From an uncultured Acidobacteriota bacterium (lineage in GTDB: Bacteria; Acidobacteriota; Vicinamibacteria; Vicinamibacterales; CAVVIG01), in NCBI GenBank assembly GCA_963780685.1, contig CAWACZ010000006.1:38683-102682 (forward strand): 64,000 bases of DNA, in the 5' to 3' direction. Both the position numbers and the translations under genes were made by a program. The notes beneath the pieces are model-generated. The model saw only the letters and a list, made by a program, of their open reading frames with translations. It had not been told where the DNA came from and ran no database searches. Each line of letters begins with the position of its first letter. The first letter of the stretch is position 1. Below are positions 2,516 through 44,174 of the stretch, in pieces.

Positions 2516-3301
2516 ATGACATCGATTGGATTCCCAACAACGCTCCATCAGCAGGTGGCGCACCTTACCGACGAGTTTTTCAATGCTCGTCCGCAGCGGG
2601 TCGACACCGTCCTGGTCGTGAACTCGTGCGCACGAGGGCGAGCAGTGCCGGAGAGCGACCTGGATCTGGCCGTGCTGGTCACCCCGAGCGCAACCGCTCA
2701 GGATGTTCAGAACCTGGAAACAACGTGGCGAGCATTCGTGGCCTCGGACCCCGTGATGATCGAGTTCCGACAGTCCGGTCGCTTTACTCAGGTGCATCTG
2801 GACCTCTTCGACGGACGTTTCGTGCCAACCGATTGGGACGATGGCGGCGGTCCGGATGCCTTCGAAGTGGAGATCGGCAATCGCCTGGCTTATGCAGTAC
2901 CTCTTGGTGAGCCAGGTATCTATTTTCACCAGCTGCAGTCGAAGTGGCTGCCGTTCTACGACGAGGAGCTCTGTATTCGCCGGCTGGCCATGGTGCGAGA
3001 GGCGTGCGCTTACGATCTCGAGCGCGTGCCGTTTTTTCTCAATCGAGGGTTGAACTTCGCGGCCTTCGACTATCTGTACAAGGCGTTCCAGGAATTCCTT
3101 CAAGCGCTCTTCATCGGGCGTCGGACGTATCCGCTGTCGTACACCAAATGGATCAAGGAACAAGTCGCGAACCGACTGAACCTGCCCGAGTTGTATCAAG
3201 CGCTGCCACCACTTCTCTCGGTTCGGAATCTCGACAGCGATGAAGTTGGCGACAAGGCGAGGGCGTTACGCCAGCTGCTCGACCGATGGATTCAGACGTG
3301 A
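2516..3301 (+). CDS. nucleotidyltransferase (Pol-beta-fold NTase) domain protein
   Basis: N-terminal CARGRAVPESDLDLAVLV fits the G[GS]-x(9-13)-DxD NTase signature. A helical C-terminal domain follows. Start is 2501 or 2516. Confidence 0.65.
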   Translation: MTSIGFPTTLHQQVAHLTDEFFNARPQRVDTVLVVNSCARGRAVPESDLDLAVLVTPSATAQDVQNLETTWRAFVASDPVMIEFRQSGRFTQVHLDLFDGRFVPTDWDDGGGPDAFEVEIGNRLAYAVPLGEPGIYFHQLQSKWLPFYDEELCIRRLAMVREACAYDLERVPFFLNRGLNFAAFDYLYKAFQEFLQALFIGRRTYPLSYTKWIKEQVANRLNLPELYQALPPLLSVRNLDSDEVGDKARALRQLLDRWIQT

Positions 3302-7257: not shown

Positions 7258-8358
7258 ATGAGGGTTGGAAGCGCGATGCGGTTCGTCCCGTACGGCCAGA
7301 TCGGTTCGGTTCCCAATGTGATCGTCGATGGGGCCGGAACCGACAACACGCTGTTGACGTTGTCGCACTGGCCGAGGAGTGGCACGCCGGCGGAGCTAAA
7401 AGCCGATACGTCGACGGCGATCGTGTTCAACTACTTGGACTCACCCAAGTTCCACGTCGAGGCCGACGTCGTGTCGAATAACCACTTCGACGAGGACGGA
7501 CTGATTGGCATCTTTGCGATGCTCGAACCAGCGCTGGCGCAGCGTCATCGCGACCTGCTCGTGGATGTCGCTCAGGCTGGAGATTTCGGGATCTTCACGA
7601 AGCGCGAGGCAGCACGGATCGCCTTCACCTTGTCTGCCTACGCAGACGCCGATACGTCTCCACTTCCGAAGAGTCTCTTCGAGCTTTCGTATCCCAAGCT
7701 TGCCGGCGAGCTGTATGTGCGGCTTCTCGAGCTTCTCCCGAGGCTGCTCACGAGTGTGAATGATTACCGGGCGCTTTGGGAGAGTGAGGACGCCAAGCTG
7801 ACAACGAGCGAGAAGCTCATCGAGGGCGGGCTCATTACAATCGATGAGCAGCCTGATCTCGATTTGGCCATCGTTCGTTTGCCCGAGGATCTGACTCGTC
7901 GCCCCGTGCATCGATTCACACAGCAACGATTGGCCGAGTGTCATCCGTTCGCGCTTCACAACAGAACTGTCTGCAGTCGCTTGCTCGTTCTGCAGGACTG
8001 CCGGGTTGAATTGCAGTATCGGTACGAAAGCTGGGTCCAAATGGCATCGAGACGGCCATCCCTGCGTGTGGATCTGTCCGGATTGGCAGATGAGCTGAAT
8101 CGCGAAGAGGCGAGCGGGGGACGCTGGGTCTTCGACGGCGTCGATCAGATCACTCCCAGGCTGCACCTGGAGGGAAGCCCCAGCACGTCCGTCCCAGTGG
8201 AGACGATTGTGAAACGGGTCGAGCATCATTTGCGGACGGGTCCATCGGCTTGGAATCCGTACCGATTGACCATCGGTGGTCCTGTTCGCGGCCTCACCAC
8301 CCGATGGAACAGTTGGCGCCCGAAGCGAAAGGGCAGGTGGGGCAGGTGGGTCGGGTAG
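7258..8358 (+). CDS. conserved hypothetical protein (no family recognised)
   Basis: Long ORF with protein-like composition from ATG 7258 or 7276 (MRFVPYGQIGSVPNVIVDG...NNHFDEDGLIGIFAML...). The last ~25 codons run into a 9-mer G-rich tandem repeat that supplies the TAG. Confidence 0.55.
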   Translation: MRVGSAMRFVPYGQIGSVPNVIVDGAGTDNTLLTLSHWPRSGTPAELKADTSTAIVFNYLDSPKFHVEADVVSNNHFDEDGLIGIFAMLEPALAQRHRDLLVDVAQAGDFGIFTKREAARIAFTLSAYADADTSPLPKSLFELSYPKLAGELYVRLLELLPRLLTSVNDYRALWESEDAKLTTSEKLIEGGLITIDEQPDLDLAIVRLPEDLTRRPVHRFTQQRLAECHPFALHNRTVCSRLLVLQDCRVELQYRYESWVQMASRRPSLRVDLSGLADELNREEASGGRWVFDGVDQITPRLHLEGSPSTSVPVETIVKRVEHHLRTGPSAWNPYRLTIGGPVRGLTTRWNSWRPKRKGRWGRWVG

Positions 8359-8385
8359 GGCCTGAAGCGTGAAGAGGACATTCGT

Positions 8386-10012: not shown

Positions 10013-10082
10013 CAACACGTCGGCGGCAGGCGACTACAATGATCGCGTAGGTCACGTGCGGGACCTTGGCAGGGAGACTTCA

Positions 10083-11055
10083 ATGATGCGTGCCTGGCAG
10101 ATGAGGGCGATGGTCGCGGCGGTGGTTGCGGTGTCCGTGTCGTCGTGTGCGCGGCAGGTGGAGGGCGACCGTATCGCCGTCTTCACAAAGAACCAGACCA
10201 ATCCCTTTTTCCAAACAGTGCGTCTTGGCGCGGACAGCGCAGCCAGGCAGATGAAGGCGACCGTCGTGCACTACATTCCCACGCAGCCGGACAGCATCCC
10301 TGAGCAGATGAGCCAGATCGAAGATGTCGTCACCAAGCGTCCGAGTGCAGTGGTCTTTATTCCCGTCGACTCGAAGGCCATGGTTCCCGGCGTGCAGAAG
10401 ATGAACGCTGCCGCCATTCCGGTCGTCAACATCGTCGACCATTCACTAGGAGGAGAGCTCCTGAGCTGGGTGGGCTCCGATCGAGTACAGCATGGGGCTG
10501 CTGACCGGGCGGTACCTGCTGCAGAAGATGAACGGCCAGGGCAACGTCATCATCATCGAGGGAGTGCGCGGATCGCTCGGAAGCAACGAACGAGTGCGCG
10601 GCTTCCAGAAAGCACTCGAGGAATTCCCTCAGGCCAAGCTCCTTTCCTCGCAACCCGGAAACTTCCAGCGGCTTCAGGCGCTGCAGGTGACCGAAAACCT
10701 GCTGCAGGCGCACCCGGTGGTCGATGGCATCATGGCCGCCAATGACGCCATGGCCCTCGGGGTGATCGAAGCCTTGGACGCGACGAACCGAAAAGCGCTC
10801 GTTGTCGGCCTCAACGGGACGAAGGAAGCGATCGACGCCATCAAAGCGGGCAAGCTCCTGGCGTCTGGAGAGTTCAACGGCTACTTGCAGGGCTGCATCG
10901 GCACGATGGCCGCCATTCGCCACGTTCGCAAGTTGCCGGTCCCGAAGTCCTTCAGCTTCCCGCCGCGCGTCATCGACAGCACCAACTACCATGGGCTGGA
11001 TGTACCGGAATCGGAGCGCGAGTGCCCCGAATGGGAGACGGTGATTAAGGGATAG
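10083..11055 (+). pseudogene. sugar ABC transporter periplasmic binding lipoprotein (ribose-binding-like), one +1 frame disruption
   Basis: Lipobox VSVSSC. The N-lobe is in ORF 10056..10745 up to SWVGSD. The remainder (MGLLTGRYLL...NVIIIEG...GIMAANDAMALG) is in ORF 10492..11055. The switch is near 10480-10490. Confidence 0.85.
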
Positions 11056-11163
11056 GGGCTGGGGGATAGGGGCTGGGGACTAGGGGCTGGGGGCTAGGGG
11101 CTGGGGGCTGGGGGCAGGGGCTGGGCTGGGTAGAGCTGGGGGCAGAGGCTGGGCGGGCTGGGC
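11052..11163. repeat. G-rich tandem heptamer/14-mer array (TAGGGGC TGGGGGC)n
   Basis: Direct reading: gataggggctggggg ataggggctgggg actaggggctggggg ctaggggctggggg... The first TAG (11053-55) is the stop codon of the upstream gene. Confidence 0.9.
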
Positions 11164-11164
11164 T

Positions 11165-11312
11165 TAAAGCATTTTCCGGTTGTACGTAGTGGGGAAAAAA
11201 GGCGCGAGAAGAGACGCTACCGCACGCTCCAGCCTTCAGGCGGACAGCCGCTGAAGGAGGTGTCGGCTGGCGAAAAGCCGGAATCGACGCGTCACACGGC
11301 AATGGAAACCGC
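11165..11312. mobile_element. small MITE-like element, copy 1 (~148 bp)
   Basis: It shares its termini taaagcattttccggttgtacgtagtg ... cacggcaatggaaaccgc, and the internal gccttcaggcggacagccgc, with 52631..52730. Confidence 0.7.
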
Positions 11313-11363
11313 CCAGTGAGAGTTAGAGGCGGACAGTAGCGAAGTGAACAGAGGGCAAAGAAT

Positions 11364-11548
11364 ACCGGACGAGGCTAGTTGAACTGAACGATGAGCAAGT
11401 TGGTAAGACCGCGCGCAGCGAAGCGTGAACGGAGCGCGGGTTCGGGTCGACGTGACGGCCGACGCGCAGCTGACGACCTCCGCGTGTCGGCTCTCGGCGC
11501 ACATGTGGCCAACGCTCAGCCGCACAAGCTTTCGGCTCATTGAATTTG
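11364..11548 (-). mobile_element. solo arm (~185 nt) of the foldback element
   Basis: Aligns by eye to 13535..13722 and, inverted, to 52449..52640 (...caagttggtaagaccgcgcgc...gggtcgacgtgacggcc...ggccaacgctcagc...ggctcattgaattt). It ends 7 nt before the stop of the gene at 11555. Confidence 0.75.
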
Positions 11549-11554
11549 AAGGTG

Positions 11555-12535
11555 CTAGGCGAACAGCGATGGTTGGCCGCCTGTGTGCCAGAAGAGGATC
11601 GTTTCCCGCGCTCCGAACCGTCCTGTCCGGATGTAGTCGATCAAGCCGGCCATCGCCTTTCCGGTATAGACAGGGTCGAGGAAAAACCCTTCGGTCCTCG
11701 CTGCGAGCTGAATCGCGTCTCGCGCCGCGGCCGTAGGCCGGCCGTATCCCGCCCCGACGTAGTCGCCGTCGACCACCGTTGGAACGCCGCCTCCGAGCGA
11801 GGCGGGATCGGCGCCGAGCAAGCTCGCCACTCCGGCGACGTTGTGTTCGATCTGCGTCCGTATGGCGCCGACCTGTTCGTCGGCGCTGATTCCGATGATG
11901 CCGGTCTGGAGCCCGAGAAGGCGGCACGCAGCCACGAGGCCCGCCTGTGTTCCGCCCGATGACGTTGCATGGACGATGACGTCGGGAGCGGGGACTTGCT
12001 CGAGGAGCTCGAGCATCGCCAGGGCGAAAGCGCAGGCACCGAGCGGCGTCGAACCACCAACAGGAATGACGAACGGGCGGCGGCCGGCACGACGCAGACG
12101 CTCGGCTGCGTCGTCCATGGCCCGATTGCGCGCCTCGCGCGAATCGACGAAGACGACCTCGGCGCCCAGCAACTCGTCGAGCAGCGCGTTGCCGGACGGG
12201 GCCGCCGGCCGCGGGCCGCTGAGCACGAGAACGGCCTTCATGCCCAGCATCGCCGCCGCTGCCGCAGTGACGCGCGCGTGGTTCGACTGGATTGCCCCCG
12301 CCGTCACGAGCGTGTCGGCGCCTTCCCGCTGCGCGGCCGCGGCGAGCAGCGCGAGCTTGCGGACCTTGTTGCCCCCAAACGCGAAATCGAGCACGTCGTC
12401 GCGTTTGACGAGAAGACTGGGTCCGCCGCCGATTGCGTTCGACAGCCGCGTCATCGGCAGCACCGGTGAAGGGCGCGATGCGAGCGGGACGCGTGGAATA
12501 CGGGATGCCGCAGCGCGGAGCTCGTCGATGGTCAC
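11555..12535 (-). CDS. PLP-dependent D-cysteine desulfhydrase / ACC deaminase family protein
   Basis: KRDDVLDFAFGGNKVRKLALL (the GGNKxRKL motif), then TAGAIQSNHARVTAAAA, and family-like sequence along the full 326 aa. Confidence 0.9.
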   Translation of the reverse strand: MTIDELRAAASRIPRVPLASRPSPVLPMTRLSNAIGGGPSLLVKRDDVLDFAFGGNKVRKLALLAAAAQREGADTLVTAGAIQSNHARVTAAAAAMLGMKAVLVLSGPRPAAPSGNALLDELLGAEVVFVDSREARNRAMDDAAERLRRAGRRPFVIPVGGSTPLGACAFALAMLELLEQVPAPDVIVHATSSGGTQAGLVAACRLLGLQTGIIGISADEQVGAIRTQIEHNVAGVASLLGADPASLGGGVPTVVDGDYVGAGYGRPTAAARDAIQLAARTEGFFLDPVYTGKAMAGLIDYIRTGRFGARETILFWHTGGQPSLFA

Positions 12536-12566
12536 GTCATCATCTTATTTCGGTGGACGCGATCTT

Positions 12567-12971
12567 TCATGAATTCCACGGCAGTCGACGACCGCTGCGG
12601 CGCAAAATCAGCGCGCGGAGTATCTCATACAGCAGGTCCGCTGCCGGTGCAGAGTTCAGCAGAAACGAATCAGCACCCGCCCGGTGTGCTGCTTCACGCT
12701 CTTCGGGAGCTGACGCGACGATAATCGACGCCGCGTGATCGGCCAAACCGCGCAACTCGGGCACGATCGATCCGCTGTCGTGAACCGACGCGATCACTAC
12801 CACAACCTCTGGTGTAATCTGCTGAAAGTAGTCCACTGCTTTGGCAAGTTCTCGGCAGTGATAGACAATCAGTCCATTCGCGCGCAACAGGTCGACATCG
12901 GCGAGCTGCGATCTGTCGCTTTCCAGCAATAAAACAGTCCCGCGCATCTGGTGGCCATGACATTTTCGCAC
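12567..12971 (-). CDS. receiver-like (CheY-fold) protein lacking the canonical phospho-acceptor Asp and conserved Lys
   Basis: Receiver-like beta/alpha pattern: TVLLLESD...PEVVVVIASVHDSG...SIIVASA...GADSFLLNSAP. Ile/Ala sits where the phospho-Asp is expected and Asn where the Lys is expected. Confidence 0.55.
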   Translation of the reverse strand: MRKCHGHQMRGTVLLLESDRSQLADVDLLRANGLIVYHCRELAKAVDYFQQITPEVVVVIASVHDSGSIVPELRGLADHAASIIVASAPEEREAAHRAGADSFLLNSAPAADLLYEILRALILRRSGRRLPWNS

Positions 12972-13061
12972 CGCTGCCGCGCCGCAACGAGTGGCCCGGG
13001 CCCGATGCGCGCCGCATCCGTGGCGTGCGATTCAGGTTGGCGGTGCATGGCGACAGCAAAT

Positions 13062-13735
13062 GCTAATGCCGTTCTGAAATTCGTGGCCGACCGCACAACG
13101 GTCAGCTGAGCGACGCGACCCGCGGCCGGGAAGCATCTCGGGCCGTCGCGCCGTTTCCGTCAGCCCGAAAAACGGCGTTACGCTCGCTTTCCTTCCGCTG
13201 GCGCGACCGTCCTACTGCTTCGCGGCATCGCTCCGATCAACGACTACCGCCTCGGGCAACGCCTTGGTCCGAGTGACCTCGCGGCAGACGGCCGCGCAGG
13301 ACTCGGCTTCACGCCGTTTTTCCTGCACGGTGGCGGGCTGACTCCAAACGGCGCGCCGCCCGAGACGCTTCCCGCCAGTGCCCGGAGCCGAGGACGGTGA
13401 TGCGGAGGGTCGTCGGCTGGCGCAAGGGCCGTGAAGTCGAACCGTCACGCTTCAGGAAAACCCGCGCGCAGTGAGTTCCGTCGCGGCGGTCTTTCACGAT
13501 GTCACCCGAGGGCCCCAAGCATCCCGGACGGGGCTAGTTGATCTGAGCGATGCCGCAAGTTGGTAGGACCGCCGCGCAGCGATAGAGTGGCGAACGGAGC
13601 GCGGGTTTTCCGGGTCGACGATGACGGCCCGACGCGCCAGCTGACGGCCCTCCGCCGTGGCGCCAAATGCGGCCAACGCTCAGCAGCACAAGCTTTCGGC
13701 TCATTGAATTTCCGACAGGCATGGCAATGCCTGCT
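13062..13735 (-). mobile_element. foldback element, full copy (~670 bp), inverted relative to the copy at 52.4 kb
   Basis: Ends are taatgccgttctgaaattc (13064) and gaatttccgacaggcatggc (13706). The interior is collinear with the reverse complement of 52432..53224, minus the nested insertion. Confidence 0.8.
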
Positions 13736-13802
13736 GTTGAGCGGTCATCGTCACCAACGACCGTCCACCCACATTGATGCGCGCAGGAAGCGACGTAAGT
13801 AT

Positions 13803-15443
13803 TCACGATCTCATGAGGAGCCGACGGAACACCTCGTCGAGGGCTGCTTTCGGGCGTTGCGAGGTGGTCTTGGCCCGCCACGCGACAAAGCCGTCGGGTC
13901 GGATGAGTACCGCCCCTGAAGGCATCAGACCGTAGGCGGCCGCGAACTCACCCTGAGGAGCCGCGAGGTCTGGTCCGCCCACCAGGTGCGTGTCCAGCTC
14001 GAGTCCTGTGAAATCTCCGGCGCTCGCTCGCGCAGCATCAATCCACGTGGCGCCTTCGGCACCAGCGAGGAGCACGAACGAGCGGCCGAACAGATCGATG
14101 GTCGACGTCCTTTGCCCACGCCATTCGAGCCACATGTGCGGAGCACGCGAGCCGGGCCGGCCGTGCGATTCGTGCGGGCTCTCGTGTCCCCGATCCAGGT
14201 CGTCTTCCGAGACGATGGCTTCGGAGCGATACAGATACCCGAGCTCGATGTGGAAATCGTCGACCTGGGGCTGATAGTCCTTCGCGCCCAGGTAGGTCGC
14301 AGAACGGGTTACGTAGCGTGTGTACGCCTGCTCGACGGTGAACTTGCCGACCGGCTTGCGCTCCGCCTCGTAGGTTTCGAGTAACTCGCCGCCTGCGACG
14401 CCTTTCAGCACCAGCGCCAGCTTCCACGCCAGGTTATGGCCGTCGTGAATGCCCGTGTTGCCGCCGTATCCACCGTTTGGTGGCATCAGGTGTGCCGAGT
14501 CGCCGGCCAGAAAAACCCGCCCGTCGCGAAAGCGCCGTGCGACATCGGAGGTCGCCCTCCAACGCGCCACGCCGTCGATCGTCACCGGCAGATCGGGAAC
14601 GCCTGCGCCTGCGCGAACCAGCTCGATGAGACGCTCCTGGCGAACATCGGATGCAGGGCTTGCGGCCTCGGGGCGTGACGTGTCGCCGGCTGTATTGACG
14701 ACGAGAAAGCCGGAATTCTGGTCCTTGTCGAGGCGGAAGAAGCCCGCCAGCACCGAATTGGTGACGTAGATGACGCTCAGGTTCTTGCCGACGAGCAGCG
14801 GCGCCACCGGGGCATGGAAATAGATCGTGATGCTGTTCGAGAACACGCCGCGGCCGTCGAACTCGATACCGGCGAGTTCCCGCACCCGGCTGTGGGCGCC
14901 GTCCGCGCCGACGAGGTACTTGGCCCGCAGCCGACGCTCCGTGCCGGTGTCGAGCTCCTTCACTGTCGCGGTGATGCTGCTTCCATCCTGCTCGATTCCG
15001 ATGACCTCCGTTCCCTCCATGACGCGGGCGCCCGCCTGTTCCGCTCGCGCCCGGAGAATCGGTTCGAGGCCGGGTTGAGTGATGAACAGCCGGCGACACG
15101 GGCTCAGCGCGTCGACGCCCTCGTTGAGGCTGGGAATGAAGCCGGCGATTTGCTTACCGGCAAGGGAGTCCATCAGTACGACGGCCCCCTCCGGTTCGAA
15201 TTCTTTCAGCGACTGGCGGCGCACCTCGGGCTCGATGCCGGCCGAGCGGAAGAGCTCGAGCGTTCGCATGTGAAAAAATGCCGCGCGCGGAACGGGCGAC
15301 CCTCCACGCAGGCGTTCGACGGCAAGGGAGGCAATGCCGTGTTGCGCCAGGAACATGGCGGTCGACAAGCCGACCAGGCCACCACCCGCGATGAGGACGG
15401 GAGCATCCATCTCGATTCCGGCCGAGTCGCCGTGTCCACTCAT
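13803..15443 (-). CDS. FAD-dependent aromatic-ring monooxygenase (PheA/TfdB-type)
   Basis: VLIAGGGLVGLSTAMFLAQHGI dinucleotide fold. GDSAHLMPPNGGYGGNTGIHDGHNLAWKL FAD/substrate block. ~150-aa C-terminal thioredoxin-like extension. Confidence 0.9.
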   Translation of the reverse strand: MSGHGDSAGIEMDAPVLIAGGGLVGLSTAMFLAQHGIASLAVERLRGGSPVPRAAFFHMRTLELFRSAGIEPEVRRQSLKEFEPEGAVVLMDSLAGKQIAGFIPSLNEGVDALSPCRRLFITQPGLEPILRARAEQAGARVMEGTEVIGIEQDGSSITATVKELDTGTERRLRAKYLVGADGAHSRVRELAGIEFDGRGVFSNSITIYFHAPVAPLLVGKNLSVIYVTNSVLAGFFRLDKDQNSGFLVVNTAGDTSRPEAASPASDVRQERLIELVRAGAGVPDLPVTIDGVARWRATSDVARRFRDGRVFLAGDSAHLMPPNGGYGGNTGIHDGHNLAWKLALVLKGVAGGELLETYEAERKPVGKFTVEQAYTRYVTRSATYLGAKDYQPQVDDFHIELGYLYRSEAIVSEDDLDRGHESPHESHGRPGSRAPHMWLEWRGQRTSTIDLFGRSFVLLAGAEGATWIDAARASAGDFTGLELDTHLVGGPDLAAPQGEFAAAYGLMPSGAVLIRPDGFVAWRAKTTSQRPKAALDEVFRRLLMRS

Positions 15444-18961: not shown

Positions 18962-20234
18962 ATGCAGGTCGCCACAGAAGTCACAGAGCGCGTCTTCGCC
19001 AAAATCACCTGGCGACTGATGCCATTTCTCATCGTCGCCTACGTCCTGAACTATCTCGATCGAAACAATGTCGGCTTTGCCGCGTTGACGATGAACCAAG
19101 AGCTCGGGTTGACGCCGCTGCAGTTCGGCAATGCGAGTGGCATCCTCTTTCTCGGCTACTGCTTCTTCGAAATACCCAGCAACATCGCCTTGTATCGCGT
19201 CGGGGCGCGGATCTGGCTCTCGAGGATCATGATCACCTGGGGACTCGTCTCCGCCGCGACCATCTTCGTAACGGGTGCCAACAGTCTGTATCTCCTCCGG
19301 TTCCTGCTTGGTGTGGCGGAGGCGGGATTTTTTCCTGGCGTCGCCTACTACCTCGGGACCTGGTTCCCGACCGAGTACCGCACACGGGCGATCGCCTGGT
19401 TCATGGTCGCCATCCCCGTGTCTTCGGTGATCGGCGGTCCCATCTCGGGCTTGCTATTGGCGATGGACGGTGTGGCGGGGCTGGCGGGGTGGAAGTGGTT
19501 GTTTCTCGTCGAGGGGCTGCCGGTCTGCCTGTTGGGAGTGGCCGCACTCTGGGTGCTCGCGGACCGGCCGGAGGATGCGAAGTGGCTGACCGAGGAAGAG
19601 CGGCAGATCGTTCGCGATCGCCTCGCCAGCGAGCGCCGCGAGCGCGAGGTCAAACACCTTCTTCCGGCCTTGAAAGATACACGCGTGCTGGTCCTCGCCG
19701 GCGTCCAGTTCGGCTTTCTCGTTGGATCGGTACGGCGTCGGACTGTTCCTGCCACAGATACTGAAAGAAGGCCAGCTGTCCGACATCGAAGTCGGATTCG
19801 TCTCGAGTGCCTGCTACGTCGTGGCGTCGGTTGGCATGATCGCGTGGGCGACACACGTCGAGCGACACGGCGGACGGGTAGGCAACCTCACCCTCACGTG
19901 CCTCGTCGCGGCCGTCGGATTTCTCGGCGCGATCTATTCGAGTCGATTCTGGGTCTCGATCGTCTGGCTGACGGTCGCGCTCACGGGAATCAACGCGGCT
20001 CGTGGGCTGTTTTGGACGATACCGCCGCGATTTCTGACAGGGATGGCGGCAGCCGGCGGCCTGGCCTTCATCAACTCAATCGGGACCATGGGCGGGTTCG
20101 TCGGACCGATCGTGATGGGATGGCTGACCGATCGATCCGGCTCGTTTTTCGCCGGACTCGCCGCCATGGGGGCGTTCCTGCTGCTCGCGGCCGCGTTGTC
20201 CTGGTCGCTGAAGCTGTTCGTGAAGCAGGATTAG
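18962..20234 (+). pseudogene. MFS transporter (anion:cation symporter-like), one +1 frame disruption
   Basis: TM1-6 are in ORF 18962..20278 up to GVQFGFLVGS. TM7-12 (YGVGLFLPQIL...GGFVGPIVMGWLTD) are in ORF 19722..20234. The switch is at cggtacgg 19729-19733. Confidence 0.85.
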
Positions 20235-20240
20235 CAAGAG

Positions 20241-20432
20241 CAGCTTCCAGCTCCCAGCTTTCAGCTCTCAGCAAGTAGCGCAGGCCCTCAGGCCTGCTTG
20301 CGACGGGCAGCCCTGACCAGCCTCCGCCAAGGCTACGGCGGTCCGCCGAAGCTTCAGCGAAGGCGGAAGGGCTGCGTTACGTCGGCGCGATTTCTTCACA
20401 GGGTCTGAGAGCTGGCAGCTGGAAGCTGGCAG
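20241..20432. repeat. composite palindrome: heptamer array, 106-nt REP/MITE-like core, inverted heptamer array
   Basis: Left array (cagcttc cagctcc cagcttt cagctct cagcaag) at 20241-75. Core gtagcgcag...ctgcgttac at 20275-20380. Right array (ctgagag ctggcag ctggaag ctggcag) at 20405-32. It fills the gap between two convergent genes, so it is a bidirectional terminator candidate. Confidence 0.85.
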
Positions 20433-20852
20433 CTATTTCTTAAACGTAATCGTCCTCAAGAAATTTCGGTCCGCCTTGAGCTCCTCCTGTCCCGCCGGAA
20501 ACTTATTCACCTGGAGCATGTAGGCGACGATGTCGGTGGAGGACTGGGTGGTGAGACTGCCGACGTTATCGGCCGGCATCGACGTCCGAATTCGATCGAC
20601 GAGGTCGGCCATGTTCTGACCGTCCCATCGGTCGAGAAACTCGCCCCCCGCGAGCGAAGGCGCCTGGTCGCTGCCGCTCAGGTCCGCTAGATGGCACGCG
20701 CTGCAAACCTGGCCGTAAGTAGTCTGGCCGCGTTGGGCCTGCAACTCGCTATAAATACCCGCCGACAGGCTCGGTCCCTGGCCCGCGTAGCCGGTCGACA
20801 GTAAGCAAAGCATTGCGGCCGCAACTGGTGCGGTGTGTTTGAATGCGATCAT
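20433..20852 (-). CDS. class I c-type cytochrome with signal peptide
   Basis: Signal peptide MIAFKHTAPVAAAMLCLLSTGYAG, and a single CSACH haem-binding motif. Confidence 0.8.
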   Translation of the reverse strand: MIAFKHTAPVAAAMLCLLSTGYAGQGPSLSAGIYSELQAQRGQTTYGQVCSACHLADLSGSDQAPSLAGGEFLDRWDGQNMADLVDRIRTSMPADNVGSLTTQSSTDIVAYMLQVNKFPAGQEELKADRNFLRTITFKK

Positions 20853-20938
20853 GGAAATGTTCCCTTTTCACCAAAAAGTCTATCGCAGCTTCGACCGCGG
20901 CCTCTTGCAGCGCAGGCCTTTAGGCCTGCCTCTTCGAA

Positions 20939-21979
20939 TCACCTTACCTGAGACGAGTCTCTGTCCGTCGCTGCTCGGTCGTCGTCGGCGTTGTCCTCCG
21001 CGCGCCCGGCCCTCAGGATGGCTTCCAGGCCGAGGTTCCCTTCGTGGCAGGCGTATTCATAGGGCCGTTGGCTGTCGTCCTTTTTCGCCAGGTTCATCGC
21101 GAAAGTCCAGGGCCGCCTCCAGGTGTGCGGGTCTTCGAAGGTGACGGACCATTCGAGCACATCGGGCGCGGTTGGCTTGAAGCGCTCGACCATTCGAAGA
21201 TGCTCGCTGGAACCTCGGTACGGCGTCCTGTCGGTGAAGTTGGTCGTTTCGACTACCAGCGTGCTGCCATCCCATCGACCACGCGCGTCGCCGAGATACA
21301 TGTGAATGCCTTGTCCGACGTGCGGCCGTCCATCAAGCGGGATGACGCGCGTCTCGTTGACCATTTCGTACTGGATCGCAACGTAACCTGGCCCCTGATG
21401 GATCTGATAGGCATTGCCGTAAATGGCCGGCATCATGGAGCCGGGCAGGCCGCGCGTGATGCATCGATCGTACAGGCTGCGATCCTCGTAGGAATCCGCG
21501 GGCCCGCGGCCGCGCCCGGATTCCGACCGATCGGCTGCCCGCTGCCGGGCTTCGTCGGTCTGAGGAGGAATCTTGCCGTCTGGTGGGTCCGTCACGAGCC
21601 ACGCGCGGCTGTTCTTCGGAAAGTGATTCTCGAACCAATGGAGCGGGCTTCTCAGCTCCCATCGCTGCCGGTCGGCCTCGATCCGTTGGTCGCTGCGCTG
21701 GTTGCGAAGCGCTGCGAGCTCGGCGTCCGTGATCTCTTCGAGCCGGCGCCCTTCGAATTGTGCCGGTCGCTCGAAGGGAATAAGGCTCTCGTCGTTGTTG
21801 GTGAAGACACCGGAAATGTCCGGATCGCCCCATGGCGTCCGACTGGGCATATACGGTTTCGGGGGAGCTGCCGTACGAGTCGGGGAGGGTCCTTGAGCGA
21901 AAAGTGGAGCGACGCTCGAACCGACCAGCATCGTGGCGACCAACACGCCGGCTGACGCGAGGACGCGCTGACGGCACAT
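20939..21979 (-). CDS. secreted conserved hypothetical protein, paralog A of a three-member family
   Basis: Signal peptide. Blocks shared with 30372..31430 and 48759..49595: TPWGDPD(I/L)(S/Q)G, RCITRG, IPLDGRPH, GRWDGSTLVVETTNF, YEYACHEGN. Confidence 0.7.
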   Translation of the reverse strand: MCRQRVLASAGVLVATMLVGSSVAPLFAQGPSPTRTAAPPKPYMPSRTPWGDPDISGVFTNNDESLIPFERPAQFEGRRLEEITDAELAALRNQRSDQRIEADRQRWELRSPLHWFENHFPKNSRAWLVTDPPDGKIPPQTDEARQRAADRSESGRGRGPADSYEDRSLYDRCITRGLPGSMMPAIYGNAYQIHQGPGYVAIQYEMVNETRVIPLDGRPHVGQGIHMYLGDARGRWDGSTLVVETTNFTDRTPYRGSSEHLRMVERFKPTAPDVLEWSVTFEDPHTWRRPWTFAMNLAKKDDSQRPYEYACHEGNLGLEAILRAGRAEDNADDDRAATDRDSSQVR

Positions 21980-21993
21980 GCAGGAATTATAGG

Positions 21994-22014
21994 GCAGACT
22001 TCAGACTTCAGACT
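21994..22014. repeat. heptamer array (CAGACTT)x3
   Basis: cagacttcagacttcagactt. This is the reverse complement of the array at 22978..23027. Confidence 0.85.
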
Positions 22015-22085
22015 TCTGACCTGGTACATAATGCGCAGCCGTAACGATCGGCCTTGGAAACTCGGGTGGCGAGGGGATCAATTAG

Positions 22086-22994
22086 ATGGAAGGACAGCTT
22101 CTCGGATTTATCGGCATTGGCAGGATGGGCGGGCCGATGTCGTCCAGGCTGATAGATGCCGGCTATTCGTTGTGCGTTTTCGATACGAATCCGGATGCGG
22201 TGAAGCCACTCGCTGCCCGGGGCATCGAGGTCGTGGCCTCACCCGCAGAGGTGGCGTCGATTGCGCAAATCGTGCTGATGAGCCTGCCAACTCCGAGTGT
22301 GGTCCAAGCCGTCGCTCTGGGCGAACAGGGCATCGTCCACGGATCGAAGGTGCGGACGCTTGTCGACCTGTCGACCACTGGACCCGGCGTGGCAAGTGTC
22401 GTCAGTAAGGGAGTGGCCGAACGCGGGATCACGCTCGTCGACTCGCCCGTGAGCGGCGGCGTTGCGGGAGCGAAAGCCGGGACGCTGGCGGTGATGGTGT
22501 CGTGTCCGAAGCCAGCGCTCGAGCAGGTCGAACCGATCCTCAAGCACCTGGGGCGTCTTTTCTATACTGGCGACAAACCGGGACTCGCGCAAACGGCCAA
22601 GCTGGCCAACAACCTGCTTGCTGCGGCGGCGCTGGTGGTCTCGTCCGAGGCACTGGCGATGGGCGTCAAGGCTGGCCTGGACCCCAACGTGCTTCTGGAC
22701 ATCATCAATGCCGGAAGCGGCCGCAACAGCGCCACGCAGGACAAGTTTCCGCGATCGATTCTGCCCGGAACGTTCGATTTCGGCTTCGCGACGGGGCTCT
22801 CGTACAAGGACGTCAAGTTGTGCATCGACGAAGCCGAGGCACTTGGCGTGCCGATGGTGGTAGGTTCCGCGGTCCGGCAAATGCTGGCGGTGACGAACGC
22901 CCGATTTGGAGCCACCTCCGACTTCACGTGCATCGCGAAGGTTGTCGAAGAATGGGCGGGGGTGGAAATACGGAACAAGAAGTCTGAAGTCTGA
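22086..22994 (+). CDS. 3-hydroxyisobutyrate dehydrogenase / beta-hydroxyacid dehydrogenase family
   Basis: LGFIGIGRMGGPMSSRLIDAG NAD fold, DSPVSGG, and KLANNLLAAAA blocks. The last codons (KKSEV*) are encoded by the heptamer array. Confidence 0.9.
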   Translation: MEGQLLGFIGIGRMGGPMSSRLIDAGYSLCVFDTNPDAVKPLAARGIEVVASPAEVASIAQIVLMSLPTPSVVQAVALGEQGIVHGSKVRTLVDLSTTGPGVASVVSKGVAERGITLVDSPVSGGVAGAKAGTLAVMVSCPKPALEQVEPILKHLGRLFYTGDKPGLAQTAKLANNLLAAAALVVSSEALAMGVKAGLDPNVLLDIINAGSGRNSATQDKFPRSILPGTFDFGFATGLSYKDVKLCIDEAEALGVPMVVGSAVRQMLAVTNARFGATSDFTCIAKVVEEWAGVEIRNKKSEV

Positions 22995-23027
22995 AGTCCG
23001 AAGTCTGAAGTTAAGTCTGAAGTCTGA
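22978..23027. repeat. heptamer array (AGTCTGA)n, about 7 units
   Basis: agtctga agtctga agtccga agtctga agtta agtctga agtctga. The second unit supplies the TGA stop at 22992-94. It is followed by gtagcgcagcc...cctgtgaagaaa (solo REP end plus inverted flank). Confidence 0.9.
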
Positions 23028-23190
23028 AGTAGCGCAGCCCTTTGAGAGCCTGTGAAGAAACACTTCAACCGCCGAGTTCGCAGAGGAAGAATCCTCTGGA
23101 ATTCTCGGCGATCTTTGCGCGCTCTGCGGTAGACCCGGGGGGCATTTCCACGGCCTCTTTAGGGCTAAGGGCATCGAAAAGGAAGGCCCA

Positions 23191-24694
23191 ATGTCGACTG
23201 TGACTGCACCCGCTCTCGTGCAATACAAGATGTACATCGGCGGCGAGTGGGTGGATAGCGAGTCGGGCCAGAGCTTCGAGAGCGACAATCCCTACACCGG
23301 CCGGCCTTGGGCACAGATCCCTCGGGGGACGGCCGCTGATGCCGACCGCGCCGCCCGAGCGGCGCATCATGCGTTCACTTCCGGCGATTGGCCGAAGCTG
23401 ACGCCGTCGCGTCGGGGCGCGCTTCTTCGTCGGCTCGGCGACCTGGTGGCCGATCGGTCGAAGGCGCTCGCTGAAATCGAGGTACGCGACAACGGCAAGC
23501 TGTACGCCGAAATGCACGGGCAGGTCGCGTACATGGCCCACTGGTTCCACTATTACGCAGGTCTGGCCGACAAGATCGAGGGTTCGGTCATTCCCCTCGA
23601 CAAGACCGACTACCTCAACTACACGCGCCTCGAACCTCTCGGCGTCGTGGCGGCCATAGTCCCCTGGAATTCTCCGTTGCTGCTCGCCGCGTGGAAGCTT
23701 GCTCCCGCGCTCGCGGCCGGCAATACCGCAGTCATCAAGCCGTCCGAGTACACATCCGCGTCGATTCTCGATTTCATGAAGCTGGTCGAAGATGCCGGCT
23801 TTCCGCCCGGCGTCGTGAACGTCGTGACCGGCTTCGGGACCGAGGTCGGCATGCCGCTGGTCGAGCATCCGCTCGTGGCCAAGGTGGCGTTCACCGGATT
23901 CTGACGCGACCGGCCAGCGGATCTACGAAGCGGCGGCGCGCGGGATGAAGCGGGTCACGATGGAGCTCGGTGGCAAGTCGCCGAACATCGTCTTCGAGGA
24001 CGCGGATCTTGACGATGCGGTCAAGGGAGTCGTGTCGGGTATTTTGGCGGCCACCGGTCAAACGTGCGTCGCCGGTTCGAGACTCCTTCTCCAGGACACC
24101 GTTCACGATCGATTCGTCGAGAAGCTGGTCGCGTTGTTCAGGACCGCCAAGATGGGCGACCCAATGAGCCCGCAGACACAGATAGGGCCGATCGCCAACA
24201 GACCTCAGCTCGAGAAGATCTTGAAGTACATCGAGATCGCCAAAGGCGAGAATGCCACGCTCGTTCTGGGTGGGGGCCGCGCCTCTCGACCCGAATGCGG
24301 AGATGGCTGGTTCGTCGAGCCGACGATCTTCGATGGCGTGAAGAACAGCATGCGCATTGCACAGGAAGAGGTGTTTGGTCCCGTACTGTCGGTGCTTACG
24401 TTCAAGGACGAGGACGAAGCCGTCGCTGTCGGGAACGACGTCGCCTATGGCCTTGCGGCTGGAGTGTGGACGCAAAACATCCGCCGCGCCCTGACCATGG
24501 CGGCGCGGCTTCAGGCCGGGACCGTCTGGGTGAATACGTATCGCGCCAATAGCTGCATGTCGCCGTTCGGAGGCTACAAGCGGTCGGGATTCGGGCGCGA
24601 AGGCGGGAAGGACATGATCTACGAATACCTGCAGACGAAGAGCGTTTGGATCTCGACCGCGACGGACGTACCGAATCCGTTCGTGCAGCGCTAG
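23191..24694 (+). pseudogene. NAD(P)-dependent aldehyde dehydrogenase, one +1 frame disruption
   Basis: ORF 23191..23904 ends ...HPLVAKVAFTGF*. The next frame continues SDATGQRIYEAAARGMKRVTMELGGKSPNIVF...GQTCVAGSR. The FTGS motif is restored by removing one nt at 23898-23900. Confidence 0.9.
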
Positions 24695-24838
24695 AGGCTG
24701 GAGGCTAGAGGCTGGAGGCTCGGGGCTACTAAGTAGCGCAGCCCTTCCGCCTTCGCTGAAGCTTCGGCGGACCGCCGTAGCCTTGGCGGAGGCTGGTCAG
24801 GGCTGCCCGGCGAAGCAGGCCTTAAAGGCCTGCGCTAC
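24691..24838. repeat. heptamer array (CTAGAGG CTGGAGG)n followed by the 106-nt REP/MITE-like core in inverted orientation
   Basis: The array at 24691-24732 contains the TAG stop (24692-94). The core at 24733-24838 is the near-exact reverse complement of 20275-20380. Confidence 0.85.
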
Positions 24839-24879
24839 AGCGATTTCTTCACAGGCTGTGGGAGCTGGAAGCTGATGCT

Positions 24880-30371: not shown

Positions 30372-31430
30372 CTAGCGCTGGCTTCGTGCGGCCTTTTCGT
30401 CAGCCCGCGCGCCACTGAGCATGTTGGCCATCCCGTAGTTCCCTTCGTGGCACGCGTATTCGTAGATCATGTGATAGCCAGGCTTGGTGGTGAGATCGAG
30501 CGCCACCTTCCACGGTCTCGTGTAAGTCGCGGGATCGTCGACGGTGAACTGGTACTGAAGCGTATTCGCATCGACCCGGGTGAAGCGCTCGACAAGGCGG
30601 AGATTCCGGCTGTGGATCGCGCCGCCGCCGTTGCCGCCAAGTCCGGTCAGGTCTGTGAAGTTGGTCGACTCGACCACCAGGGTATTGCCCTCCCAATGGC
30701 CGCGCGGATCGCCCATGTACATGTCGAGATTCCTACCGACGTGCGCGCGCGTCTCGAGTGGAACTAGGCGCGCCTCGTGAATCATTTCGTTCCGGATGAC
30801 GACATATCCGGGACCCTGGATGATGTTCGTACCGTTGCCGTAGATGACCGGGAGAATCGAGCCGACCACCCCGCGTGTGATGCATCGATCGTAGTTGCTA
30901 TGGAACTCGTACGAATCCTGCTCGTGAGCCAGCCGGATCGCCCGCCGCTCGGCAGTACGCTTCTGGCCCTCCGGTGTCATGGGTGGAATGCGGCCGTCGG
31001 CCGGTTCGACAACGAGCGAAGTCGCGCGTGACGGCTTGGCCGGCCGGTCGAGCCAATGCCGCGGGGCGTTGTTGGCGGCGGTGTCTTGCGCGAAGGGCGT
31101 CTCCGGGAATTCGCCCTGGTCCTTTGCGAGCTGCTCGGCATTGGCGCGTTCCCTGGCGGCATATTCCTCGTCGTTGAGCACCGTACGTCCAGCGAATTGA
31201 GGAGGACGCTCGAAGGGGACGCCGATCGAGTTGTCGCTGGTGTAAGTGCCTTGAAGATCCGGGTCGCCCCACGCGGTCCGCGGTGGGGTCCATTTTGCCG
31301 ATGATTTCGCCGCGGCAGTCGGTTGAGAACCTGGGGTCGTGCTTTGAGCCGCCAGAGACGCGACGTAGATCGATCCGATTGCTGCGACGATCGCGATCGC
31401 GCTGATTGAGGTCGACAATCGATTCCGCAT
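30372..31430 (-). CDS. secreted conserved hypothetical protein, paralog B
   Basis: Signal peptide from MRNRLSTSISAIAIVAA. Shared blocks: TAWGDPDLQGTYT, RCITRG, VPLETRAH, GHWEGNTLVVESTNF, YEYACHEGNYG. Confidence 0.7.
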   Translation of the reverse strand: MRNRLSTSISAIAIVAAIGSIYVASLAAQSTTPGSQPTAAAKSSAKWTPPRTAWGDPDLQGTYTSDNSIGVPFERPPQFAGRTVLNDEEYAARERANAEQLAKDQGEFPETPFAQDTAANNAPRHWLDRPAKPSRATSLVVEPADGRIPPMTPEGQKRTAERRAIRLAHEQDSYEFHSNYDRCITRGVVGSILPVIYGNGTNIIQGPGYVVIRNEMIHEARLVPLETRAHVGRNLDMYMGDPRGHWEGNTLVVESTNFTDLTGLGGNGGGAIHSRNLRLVERFTRVDANTLQYQFTVDDPATYTRPWKVALDLTTKPGYHMIYEYACHEGNYGMANMLSGARADEKAARSQR

Positions 31431-31617
31431 CTGACCCTCTCTCGTCTCAATCATCTTCAGGCCGCTTCGGCTTTTACAGTCGACCAGCCTAGCACAAGAG
31501 ATCGCTCTTGAAGGCGCGAGCTGATGCCGATCGGCTGGCGGGCGCGCCAATGGCGCTTCCCATGCCGATTGTCTTCGGCTGGACGCGCGCATGGGTCACG
31601 GTACTAGCAGGTGTGGA

Positions 31618-34734: not shown

Positions 34735-35241
34735 ATGTCTCTAGCATCGATTGCTGAGTGGCTGGAAGGCACAGCCGTCGGAGTGCTCGTCAGGGAGACG
34801 GTGTGGGGGTTCCCTATCGTCGTTGCGATTCACATCCTTGGCCTGATGCTCTCTGTGGGCATGGTGATCTGGTTCGACTTGCGGCTACTCGGTGTCACAC
34901 TACGAAACTACCGCGTGTCGACTCTTTACCGCCGGATCATTCCCTGGGCAGGTGCCGGCTTCGCGTTGATGTTCGTGAGCGGAGGCATGCTCCTCGTGGG
35001 ATATGCGACGGCCGCGTACGGCAACACGTACTTCCGCATCAAAGCCGCGGCGCTGGTGCTGGCCGGCCTGAACGCGTTCATCTACCACGCCCTCACTGAA
35101 CGAACGATCAGTCGCTGGAACGACGCCGCGCGGCCACCGATCCCGGCACGGATCGCGGGATTGACCTCGATCCTGCTGTGGATGCTCGTCATTCTCGCAG
35201 GGCGCATGATGTCGTACACCATGTTTTCGGGTCCCAACTGA
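34735..35241 (+). CDS. 4-TM membrane protein, paralog 2
   Basis: LVRETVWGFPIVVAIHILGLMLSVG...DLRLLG...YFRIKAAALVLAGLN. No family recognised with confidence. Confidence 0.5.
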   Translation: MSLASIAEWLEGTAVGVLVRETVWGFPIVVAIHILGLMLSVGMVIWFDLRLLGVTLRNYRVSTLYRRIIPWAGAGFALMFVSGGMLLVGYATAAYGNTYFRIKAAALVLAGLNAFIYHALTERTISRWNDAARPPIPARIAGLTSILLWMLVILAGRMMSYTMFSGPN

Positions 35242-35255
35242 AACTACGAATCCAT

Positions 35256-35298
35256 GAATTTGAGGATTTGAGAATCTGGGGATTTGAGAATTTAGAAG
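35256..35298. repeat. AT-richer tandem repeat (GGATTTGAGAATYTRG)x~2.5
   Basis: gaatttgag gatttgagaatctgg ggatttgagaatttag, lying just after the stop of the upstream gene. Confidence 0.7.
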
Positions 35299-43960: not shown

Positions 43961-44173
43961 TCAGTGAATGGCCGCGGCGATGATGAGGCAGAGGCCGATC
44001 GAGACCAGCCCGATGAACATGGCCAATGCCGTGTTCTGATGCTCGACGATCTCGCGCCACAGCGAATACGGCGTCAACCGATCGAGGACGACGAACGAGA
44101 CGGCGAACACCACGATGCCGAGCAACGCAAACACCACGGACGCCACCAGATTCGCGTAGACGTCAGCCACCAT
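43961..44173 (-). CDS. DUF350 (YjfL-like) small membrane protein
   Basis: 70 aa with 3 TM segments. Strong RBS aggaggaaag. Sequence pattern NLVASVVFALLGIVVF...NTALAMFIGLVSIGL. Confidence 0.75.
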   Translation of the reverse strand: MVADVYANLVASVVFALLGIVVFAVSFVVLDRLTPYSLWREIVEHQNTALAMFIGLVSIGLCLIIAAAIH

Positions 44174-44174
44174 G

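Follow-up and report, generated by a model that had tools for sequence, protein, structure and literature searches.

Heptanucleotide Arrays Lie at Gene Ends of an Acidobacteriota Contig

We analyzed a stretch of 64,000 nucleotides from an uncultured Acidobacteriota bacterium (contig CAWACZ010000006.1 of assembly GCA_963780685.1, positions 38,683 to 102,682; this whole stretch is hereafter called the window), in which tandem arrays of short units, mainly heptanucleotides, are found at the 3' ends of genes. A gene map derived from codon usage assigned 81% of the window to genes. According to Pfam, the genes that flank the arrays encode a periplasmic sugar-binding protein, a major facilitator superfamily (MFS) transporter, a cytochrome c, a 3-hydroxyisobutyrate-dehydrogenase-like enzyme (in the following the dehydrogenase), an aldehyde dehydrogenase, and a short-chain dehydrogenase. 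The closest named homologs of the window proteins come from metagenome-assembled genomes (MAGs) of Blastocatellia, and a repetitive extragenic palindromic (REP) element of the window matches MAGs of Acidobacteriota and Vicinamibacteria. A preliminary description, which had been made from the sequence alone, had claimed that heptamer arrays abut gene 3' ends and sometimes supply the stop codon. All arrays and stop codons listed there were confirmed at their positions by Tandem Repeats Finder (TRF) and in the sequence itself, and further arrays were added. They are named here by their first nucleotide and are collected in Table 1 together with neighbouring dispersed repeats, which resemble REP sequences, hairpin-forming REP doublets (REPINs), or miniature inverted-repeat transposable elements (MITEs).

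Period 7 is favoured beyond chance in the window. When arrays with a score of at least 40 and at least 3 copies were counted, six period-7 arrays were found in the window compared to a mean of 0.04 in 50 dinucleotide-preserving shuffles of it, none of which reached six. Periods 8 and 9 were represented by one array each above the same threshold. None of the nine arrays is placed outside of spacers and gene edges. Seven of them abut a 3' end, whereby five of these seven overlap the stop codon, and the remaining two are located in a divergent promoter spacer (21995) and at a GTG start codon (24880). Within the 64 kb surveyed, three unit families occur more than once, namely GCTRGRG (11049 and 24690), AGCTGGN (20410 and 24857), and AAGTCTG (21995 and 22979). 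The 21995 array is the exact inverse of the 22979 array at a distance of ~960 nt, so that the dehydrogenase gene is flanked by the pair. With tandem 7-nt units above chance expectation, a mostly non-coding position, polymorphism in close relatives, and recurrent unit families, the arrays represent heptanucleotide long simple sequence repeats (SSRs), or short tandemly repeated repetitive (STRR) sequences in the broad sense. They do not qualify as phase-variation (contingency-locus) SSRs, as they lie 3' of metabolic and transport genes and not in the promoters or 5' coding parts of surface or virulence genes.

Table 1. Tandem arrays and dispersed repeats of the window, with related sites in other loci (L numbers denote loci fetched from other genomes or metagenomes)
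Feature	Position	Strand	Remark
G-rich heptamer/14-mer array GGGGCTRG	11049-11122, degenerate tail to 11164	+	TRF score 109; ~8 good units
(CAGCTNN)4.6 array, period 7/14	20241-20272	+	TRF; MFS stop 6 nt before
(AGCTGGN)3.6 array, period 7	20410-20434	+	TRF; preceded by box GCGATTTCTTCACAGG, from 20387
(CAGACTT)3.7 array	21995-22020	+	Divergent spacer upstream of dehydrogenase gene; not in preliminary description
(GAAGTCT)7.7 array, period 7	22979-23030	+	TRF; 3' end of 3-hydroxyisobutyrate-dehydrogenase-like gene
(GCTAGAG/GCTGGAG)5.6 array, period 7/14	24690-24728	+	TRF; aldehyde dehydrogenase 3' end
Degenerate AGCTGGN run	24855-24880	+	Reaches GTG start (24880) of short-chain dehydrogenase gene; not in preliminary description
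G-rich 9-mer array (GGGCAGGTG)3.4, period 9	8331-8361	+	TRF; end of DUF6687 gene
Period 8/16 array (GAATTTGA/GGATTTGA)	35256-35297	+	Begins 15 nt past stop of open reading frame (ORF) 34735..35241; not in preliminary description
REPIN-like element, 106 nt	20275-20380	+	Between 20241 and 20410 arrays
REPIN-like element, second copy	24733-24838	-	Inverted relative to first copy, 90% identity; between 24690 and 24857 arrays
Box GCGATTTCTTCACAGG plus array module	20387-20434	+	Next to 106-nt element
Box GCGATTTCTTCACAGG plus degenerate AGCTGGN run	24840-24880	+	24840-24874 is an 89% identical copy of the former module; next to second copy of 106-nt element
Solo/truncated REP head GTAGCGCAGCCC	23029-23040	+	Abuts 22979 array
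MITE-like palindromic dispersed repeat (TAAAGCATTTTCCGGTTGTACGTAGTG...)	11165-11312		Directly after 11-kb array; copies at 52631-52730 and 59970-59996
REP heads of the GTAG family	Window 20275, 20369, 20907, 23029, 24733, 24827, 53265		Also in loci L013, L037, L052, L096, L097, L212
GT-register sites	Window 22979-23035; L120 ~1390-1420; L122 ~2937-3005

Arrays Differ Between Orthologous Loci of Close Relatives

Orthologous neighbourhoods were recovered from metagenomes via homolog searches and contig look-ups, whereby an exact look-up of the window dehydrogenase protein returned no record. The gene order MFS transporter, cytochrome c, unnamed gene, dehydrogenase, aldehyde dehydrogenase, short-chain dehydrogenase is conserved. 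Relatives with ~87% protein identity (L125, L126, L131, and L132) show this same order. Their spacers at the three array sites measure 8, 77, and 28 nt and contain neither arrays nor REPs. Relatives with 96-98% protein identity carry arrays at the same three gene ends with other copy numbers or other units. The array at the aldehyde dehydrogenase 3' end, for instance, has 5.6 copies in the window compared to at least 15 in L122, whose contig ends inside the array. At the 3' end of the sugar-binding gene, L127 and L128 have ~10 units of a GGGGCTG/AGGCTGG mix, which occupy the entire 72-nt spacer between two convergent stops and leave out the MITE-like repeat that follows at 11165 in the window, and L129 and L130 have no array but TAGTTTGCTGGGAGGC only. 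The 3' site of the dehydrogenase gene is hypervariable: It carries (GAAGTCT)7.7 in the window, ~4 copies of AAAGTAA in L120, ~9 copies of TCGTTKG followed by a REP in L122 and L124, and (TCGTTGG)n followed by the inverse (CCAACGA)n without a REP in L123 (~2247-2400). The dehydrogenase protein is identical in L122, L123, and L124 despite the differing spacer architecture of L123, where the aldehyde dehydrogenase gene has an altered 5' end with its ATG directly after the CCAACGA units. Furthermore, the 21995 array is missing from the orthologous spacers of L119-L124, and at the site of 20387-20434 locus L122 shows the same box GCGATTTCTTCACAGG with a longer, degenerate AGCTGRG array.

Copy number and unit thus turn over at the level of strains, and the arrays are of recent origin. 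Judged from these loci, they are young, hypermutable, and lineage-specific, since they differ among near-identical strains and relatives at ~87% identity lack them. The preliminary description had suggested slippage-prone length polymorphism, and the lengths do differ between strains, as seen at the aldehyde dehydrogenase gene and, in L127, at the sugar-binding gene; slippage as the cause is what we infer. The sequences GCGCTGAGGGG of the array-less L125 and TAGTTTGCTGGGAGGC of L129 resemble array units, which would be consistent with local seeding. Short-read contigs often end inside heptamer arrays (L122 at its end, L136, L172, L186, L194, and L197), so that assemblies are broken there and true copy numbers are under-reported.

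In the window itself, several genes are split between frames (10056-11055, 18962-20278, 23191-24694, and 43961-46048, among them those of the sugar-binding protein, the MFS transporter, and the aldehyde dehydrogenase), and the assembly may therefore carry indel errors. The orthologs of these genes in the metagenome contigs are intact; by this comparison, the splits would be either indel errors of the long-read assembly or recent pseudogenes. An assembly artefact as the source of the arrays was ruled out, because independent metagenome contigs from short reads carry arrays at the orthologous sites as well. The unnamed gene upstream of the dehydrogenase gene encodes 346 amino acids without a Pfam match and has a paralog ~9.4 kb away (ORF 30372..31592), as indicated by the segments 20986-21303 and 30389-30724, which share 74-78% identity.

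Stop Codons Within the Arrays Occur at Chance Level

The first unit of the 11049 array contains the TAG (11053-55) that is the stop of the sugar-binding gene (ORF 10492..11055), and the first unit of the 24690 array likewise contains the TAG (24692-94) that ends the aldehyde dehydrogenase ORF 23945..24694. The dehydrogenase ORF 22086..22994 is terminated by the TGA at 22992-94, which follows the codons K K S E V; of these, S-E-V and the TGA itself are supplied by the 22979 array. The stop of the DUF6687 gene, a TAG at 8356-58, sits in the third 9-mer of the 8331 array, which bears out the earlier statement that a G-rich 9-mer array ends the gene at 7258..8358. At the convergent pair, the MFS stop (20232-34) is located 6 nt before the 20241 array, and the final unit of the 20410 array shares nucleotides with the stop of the cytochrome c gene on the minus strand (20433-35).

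In order to judge how far the arrays replace native stops, we compared the four coding-end cases with their homologs. A clear stop replacement emerges from these alignments in one of the four, the dehydrogenase gene. Its closest homologs end in ...EIRNKK-stop and the window protein ends in ...EIRNKKSEV-stop, so that here the native stop (KK-stop) has been lost and the array provides the new one (KKSEV-stop). In the sugar-binding gene, as judged by the same kind of comparison, the TAG is ancestral and the array merely begins at it. For the aldehyde dehydrogenase gene, the array-less L125 has CGC TGA GGGGGG (GCGCTGAGGGG) with a TGA stop, which resembles an array unit, and the window has GCGCTAGAGGCTGGAG at this place.

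As the preliminary description had stated, the TAGs of the 11-kb array fall into all three reading frames, and the stops in the 22979 and 24690 arrays into two frames each. Units with CTAG yield a TAG on both strands, and CAGCTCC, AGCTGGC, and GCTGGGG units have no stop on the relevant strand. Over a sample of 70 period-7 arrays, a stop triplet on either strand was present in the units of 42, compared to 41.4 expected when each unit's own bases were shuffled. The stop content of the units is at chance level, and a dedicated role as frame-independent translation stop, which had been put forward earlier, is therefore not supported. We conclude that stops within the arrays reflect tolerance at the gene end and not a dedicated device. 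A further test for a gradient of TAG-containing units toward the gene-proximal end of the arrays was discarded as circular, because the arrays had been classified by having a stop there.

Period-7 Arrays Are Enriched at Gene Ends in Loci From Many Phyla

The distribution outside of the window was followed in 824 kb of loci from many phyla, which had been fetched for another reason. Period 7 accounted for 69 of the 122 strong arrays in this set. The likeness to heptanucleotide STRR repeats, which had been pointed out from the first reading of the window, holds in that period 7 is special both here and in the window (6 vs 0.04). Diverse 7-mer arrays were present in loci of Bacteroidota, Verrucomicrobiota, Planctomycetota, Armatimonadota, lineages of the Candidate Phyla Radiation (CPR), and others, and adjacent inverted pairs were frequent. 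Gene 3' ends were abutted by 24 of 120 sides of period-7 arrays (20%) compared to 5.9% for random positions, and 15% of the sides were near a start codon compared to 9.7% for random positions. When units were counted as shared with at most one mismatch, in any rotation and on either strand, a shared unit was found for 22.6% of array pairs from the same locus compared to 2.4% of pairs from different loci.

A metagenome scan for three consecutive GCTRGRG units yielded at least 120 contigs with a GC content of 40% to 73%, and the following counts refer to the matches listed. Here, a gene end was scored when an ORF of at least 100 codons ended at -12 to +20 nt of the array start on the G-rich strand. 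This was the case for 51 of 109 arrays on the side of the G-rich strand compared to 10 of 104 on the other side and 5.8% of random positions. By eye, about half of the ORFs of at least 100 codons that were counted as genes looked spurious, and the test was repeated with a coding-potential filter, which left 40 of 109 compared to 4 of 104 (Fisher p = 6e-10) and 1.9% at random. Inverted partners of GCTRGRG arrays had the G-arm first in 13 cases and second in one. Low-GC loci with GCTAGGG/ACTAGGG arrays were also among the matches. The preliminary description had named two outcomes that would speak against its observation, an even placement of arrays relative to gene ends and other periods being equally common. 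As gene-end enrichment is present in both sets and other periods are rarer, the observation stands.

Arrays Share Their Spacers With REP-, REPIN-, and MITE-Like Elements

A dispersed repeat adjoins six of the nine window arrays (at 11165, 20275, 20387, 23029, 24733, and 24840). In the 106-nt element at 20275-20380, a GTAG-headed REP (GTAGCGCAGGCC..GGCCTGC) is combined with two hairpins in the interior, one of them CCGCCGAAGCTTCAGCGAAGGCGG, and with a GTAG head in inverted orientation. Its termini GTAGCGCAG...CTGCGYTAC pair in the folds of both copies, and its REP-type end consists of the GTAG head with an adjoining palindrome, GTAGCGCAGGCCTTYAGGCCTGC. The head motif GTAGCGCAGSCC has eight matches in the window compared to 0.93 expected. 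A GTAG or GTGG head is a defining criterion for REP sequences. The 106-nt element has such a head with an imperfect GC-rich palindrome, is repeated and extragenic, and forms an inverted doublet that folds as a hairpin, and it thereby classifies as REP/REPIN. A REP family with this head, GTAGCGCAG[GC]CC-TTYAG-GG[GC]CTGC, is common to several Acidobacteriota MAGs. An array precedes four of five window REP heads and also the heads in L120, L122, and L124. Arrays ahead of REP heads were seen only in the window's own lineage, with none at the 13 heads of other Acidobacteriota MAGs. In L097, the GTAG head itself apparently supplies a TAG stop (..AAGAA followed by GTAGCGCAGG).

The units at the dehydrogenase 3' site (CTGAAGT, AAAAAGT, and CGTTKGT) all end in GT (unit positions 6-7), and this dinucleotide is in register with the GT in the GTAG head of the adjacent REP. 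The match could be a coincidence or a hint that units duplicate from the junction. No ORF for a REP-associated tyrosine (RAYT/Y1) transposase stood out near the repeats within the 64 kb, whereby no Pfam scan of all ORFs was made.

The core of the 106-nt element is the 24-nt hairpin CCGCCGAAGCTTCAGCGAAGGCGG (20343-20366 and 24747-24770 in the window), which occurs as an exact 24-mer at more than 118 genome loci from more than 10 phyla. Among the matches listed, these loci include Acidobacteriota, Bradyrhizobium isolates, Bacteroidota, Planctomycetota, Verrucomicrobiota, and many CPR lineages, and the hairpin is frequent just 3' of tRNA genes and sometimes lies within apparent ORFs (24 nt correspond to 8 codons). 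It belongs to no Rfam family, and its sequence was not found in the literature searched. Across phyla, arrays were ~5x denser within 60 nt of the hairpin, which is roughly the expectation from the shared intergenic location, and we therefore make no claim of a specific coupling between array and hairpin. A larger element of ~815 nt with 32-nt terminal inverted repeats is located at 52421-53235. An inverted, 92% identical partial copy of it lies ~39 kb away at 13058-13722, and the element is also present in L127. No intact or convincing ORF was found in it or in the 11-kb spacer.

Folding, G-Quadruplex Motifs, and Terminators

The spacer between the convergent genes (20235-20435) is predicted to fold into a single long hairpin, in which the 20241 array, as the left arm, pairs with the 20410 array. 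Its folding energy of -114.8 kcal/mol corresponds to z = -6.3, and none of 200 shuffles folded as well. The composite at 24.7 kb folded modestly better than its shuffles (z = -2.77), and the fold of the 11-kb array region was not clearly better (z = -1.95). The latter region (11049-11164) contains 17 G-runs of at least three and three non-overlapping canonical G-quadruplex (G4) motifs of the four in the whole window. The remaining one is carried by the 8331 9-mer array, so that the canonical G4 motifs of the 64 kb are confined to the two G-rich arrays, both of which have them at a gene end and on the sense strand. These two are also the only ones that have at least four units with a G-tract of at least three in each and thus belong to the G4-type SSRs, for which G4 formation is predicted. 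The 11049 and 24690 arrays lie near the upstream ORF and on its coding strand.

A consensus scan for intrinsic terminators (hairpin plus U tract) found 21 candidates compared to 12.9 +/- 4.0 expected. None of them coincided with the arrays, apart from weak trivial matches inside the 20410 array, and this speaks against the terminator role that had been considered in the preliminary description. A search of the whole window against Rfam gave no match at the gathering threshold, and E-value scans of 20100-25000 and 10900-13900 gave a single match at chance level (P26, E = 0.41).

Slippage, Structure, or Mobility

On balance, we consider it probable that the arrays are slippage-type heptanucleotide long SSRs, which arise in spacers, persist mainly just after genes, and occasionally overrun stops. 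They would then be of the same kind as the cyanobacterial STRRs and the GGGAATC/GGGGAYT and TAACTGA repeats, here in an Acidobacteriota-like soil bacterium. The arrays would originate and resize within non-coding spacers, most likely by replication slippage or template switching on 7-nt units, and selection would account for the 3' placement: Arrays would persist mainly downstream of genes, because this position tolerates them best. An array may extend up to the gene end or a few codons into the gene, and an overrunning array would survive only where its unit offers an in-frame stop, so that a stop in the first units would be a by-product of tolerance and not a purpose. Sharing of spacers with REP/MITE-like hairpin elements, recurrence of unit families, and the folding of inverted pairs into long hairpins would be part of the same picture. 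Several observations weigh against this explanation. Unit families recur at separate loci (22.6% vs 2.4%) beyond what local slippage alone would give, nor does local slippage explain the exact inverted pair around one gene. Three unrelated units occupy one orthologous site at the dehydrogenase 3' end, and GCTRGRG arrays are strand-biased, with a gene ending on the side of the G-rich strand in 37% compared to 4%. Together, these points hint at an added dispersal mechanism or at a function at the level of RNA or transcription.

Such a function is the subject of an alternative that we regard as possible but unlikely, namely that the arrays form functional 3'-end structures in RNA or DNA, that is, hairpins from inverted pairs and G-quadruplexes on the mRNA strand. 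These would end transcription, guard the upstream mRNA against 3' exonucleases, insulate genes from their neighbours, or, like the stop-proximal REPs of Escherichia coli, affect ribosomes during termination. The long hairpin between the convergent stops, the restriction of the window's G4 motifs to sense-strand gene ends, the strong preference of GCTRGRG arrays for the sense strand right after a gene, and the excess of inverted partners with the G-arm first would all fit. However, hairpin-plus-U-tract terminators do not coincide with the arrays, the folds of the 11-kb region and of the composite at 24.7 kb are hardly more stable than those of shuffles, close relatives are array-free at the same genes, and the units at the dehydrogenase 3' end differ in sequence between relatives. 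The heptamer repeats of Xanthomonas and Nostoc point both ways, since they share the placement preferences, but the published study found no regulatory role for them (PMC4692102).

It could also be that the arrays belong to small mobile elements or result from them, as arms or flanks of REP/REPIN- or MITE-like hairpins, being either carried between loci with these elements or made at their ends (e.g., through fork stalling at the hairpin or the action of a REP-associated Y1 transposase). We think this rather improbable. Most window arrays abut a dispersed repeat, arrays stand before most REP heads of the window and before those of L120, L122, and L124, the module of box plus AGCTGGN array is dispersed in its own right, members of a unit family are found in either orientation within a locus, and the three dehydrogenase-3'-end units are in register with the GTAG head. 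But arrays also occur without REP or MITE (L127, L123, and window 21995, 35256, and 8331), the REP heads of other Acidobacteriota MAGs lack them, the higher density near the hairpin core is roughly that of intergenic co-location, and no transposase was identified in the window, in which not all ORFs were scanned against Pfam. A broader version, in which arrays, GTAG-headed REPs, and the 24-nt hairpin together make up a modular mobile intergenic mosaic, seems similarly improbable to us. Here, the arrays would not be passive products of slippage. They would arise at the ends of hairpin elements or travel with these ends (e.g., through a REP-associated Y1 transposase or template switching at the hairpin) and would home just after stops on a fixed strand. 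If true, this would explain the shared unit families at distant loci, the differing units at one site despite identical proteins, and the architecture common to multiple phyla. By far the least credible is the notion that the arrays are dedicated stops that catch ribosomes in any frame. Its appeal lies in the four genes whose stops are inside array units, in the three-frame TAGs of the 11-kb array, and in the CTAG units that read TAG on both strands. Yet the stop content of the units equals chance, the CAGCTCC, AGCTGGC, and GCTGGGG units are stop-free on the relevant strand, most arrays cover two frames at most, and array-less relatives terminate normally. Stops in three frames are simply the arithmetic of a 7-nt period, as has been noted for TAACTGA repeats (PMC4679880).

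With these arrays, a poorly understood class of bacterial repeats is extended to high-GC, Acidobacteriota-like soil genomes and, from the fetched loci, to many phyla. Its turnover is fast, and a gene can have its final codons and its stop rewritten by an array, as is the case for the first codons in one relative. For annotation, this means that arrays shift annotated gene ends and that variable C-termini are to be expected beside them. The near-identical strains found here make the spread of preferred 7-mers and the orientation of G-rich arrays directly testable. Two loose ends are of most interest, namely how unit families disperse and the 24-nt hairpin that is identical across more than 10 phyla.

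Comparison With Known Repeat Systems

STRR heptamers of heterocystous cyanobacteria were reportedly described by Mazel et al. in 1990 (reference 39 of PMC4692102). In the strict sense, the term STRR covers three cyanobacterial units, CCCCAGT, TTGGTCA, and CAACAGT. The window arrays resemble them in that heptamers are tandemly repeated in non-coding DNA and each genome has a few unit families, and STRR1 (CCCCAGT, reverse complement ACTGGGG) is one base away from the window unit GCTGGGG. With other units in a non-cyanobacterial genome of 63% GC, however, they are not STRRs in this strict sense. For long SSRs in general, Mrazek, Guo and Shah (2007), as summarized in two later papers, found that heptanucleotides are the most abundant class in most genomes that are rich in long SSRs of 5-11 nt and that units are kept out of coding regions unless their length is divisible by three, and they proposed slippage linked to the polymerase footprint as the cause (PMC4679880, PMC4692102). 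Theirs is a general survey, and these summaries mention neither the present lineage nor an association with REP-like elements.

G-rich heptamer arrays were described by Rehm et al. (2015) with the units GGGAATC in Xanthomonas and GGGGA(C/T)T in Nostoc PCC 7120 (PMC4692102). About 90% of them are intergenic, with a mean distance of 28 nt to the upstream and 160 nt to the downstream ORF. Arrays downstream of genes tend to have the orientation of the coding strand. Convergent inverted pairs number 70-75, and arrays are rare between divergent genes. Length and sequence vary between close species, and no function was found. The 11049 array and the GCTRGRG sample are likewise G-rich, predicted to be G4-capable, near the upstream ORF, on the coding strand, organized in inverted pairs, and variable. 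They differ in their units (GCTRGRG, AGCTGGN, and GAAGTCT), in the Acidobacteriota-like phylum, and in that several window arrays are not G-rich. Moreover, window arrays overlap stops and abut REP/MITE-like elements, which is unreported for the Xanthomonas/Nostoc repeats in the portions of the paper used here.

The TAACTGA direct repeats of marine Beggiatoaceae, some Cyanobacteria, and Bacteroidetes, for which no spread mechanism is known, have stops in all three frames as a consequence of their 7-nt period, and 13 sets of them overlap an upstream stop codon (MacGregor, 2015; PMC4679880). The window arrays share with them the intergenic heptamers, a genome-specific unit family, stop triplets in the units, and the scattered occurrence over phyla. 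In contrast, arrays in Beggiatoa lie mostly just upstream of starts and in the window mostly just downstream of stops, and the Beggiatoa genome has one dominant AT-rich unit, whereas the window has several GC-rich units. The elements that flank the arrays have a GTAG head and an imperfect palindrome. They are similar to REP/REPIN and bacterial interspersed mosaic element (BIME)-like mosaics, with which they share the inverted hairpin-forming doublets and the location in spacers beside further short repeats (Bertels and Rainey, 2011; PMC3116915). REPs are thus neighbours of the heptamer arrays, which do not belong to this class.

The preliminary description had implied novelty for this kind of genome, which goes too far. 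No paper on heptamer repeats in Acidobacteria was found in the literature searched, but the over-representation of heptamers, the proximity to gene ends, the inverted pairs, the variation between strains, and the overlap with stops have all been published for other phyla (PMC4692102, PMC4679880), and the window agrees with this class in each of these features. Thus, the units and the lineage are new to the searched literature, whereas repeats of this kind have been described before in cyanobacteria, Xanthomonas, and Beggiatoa.

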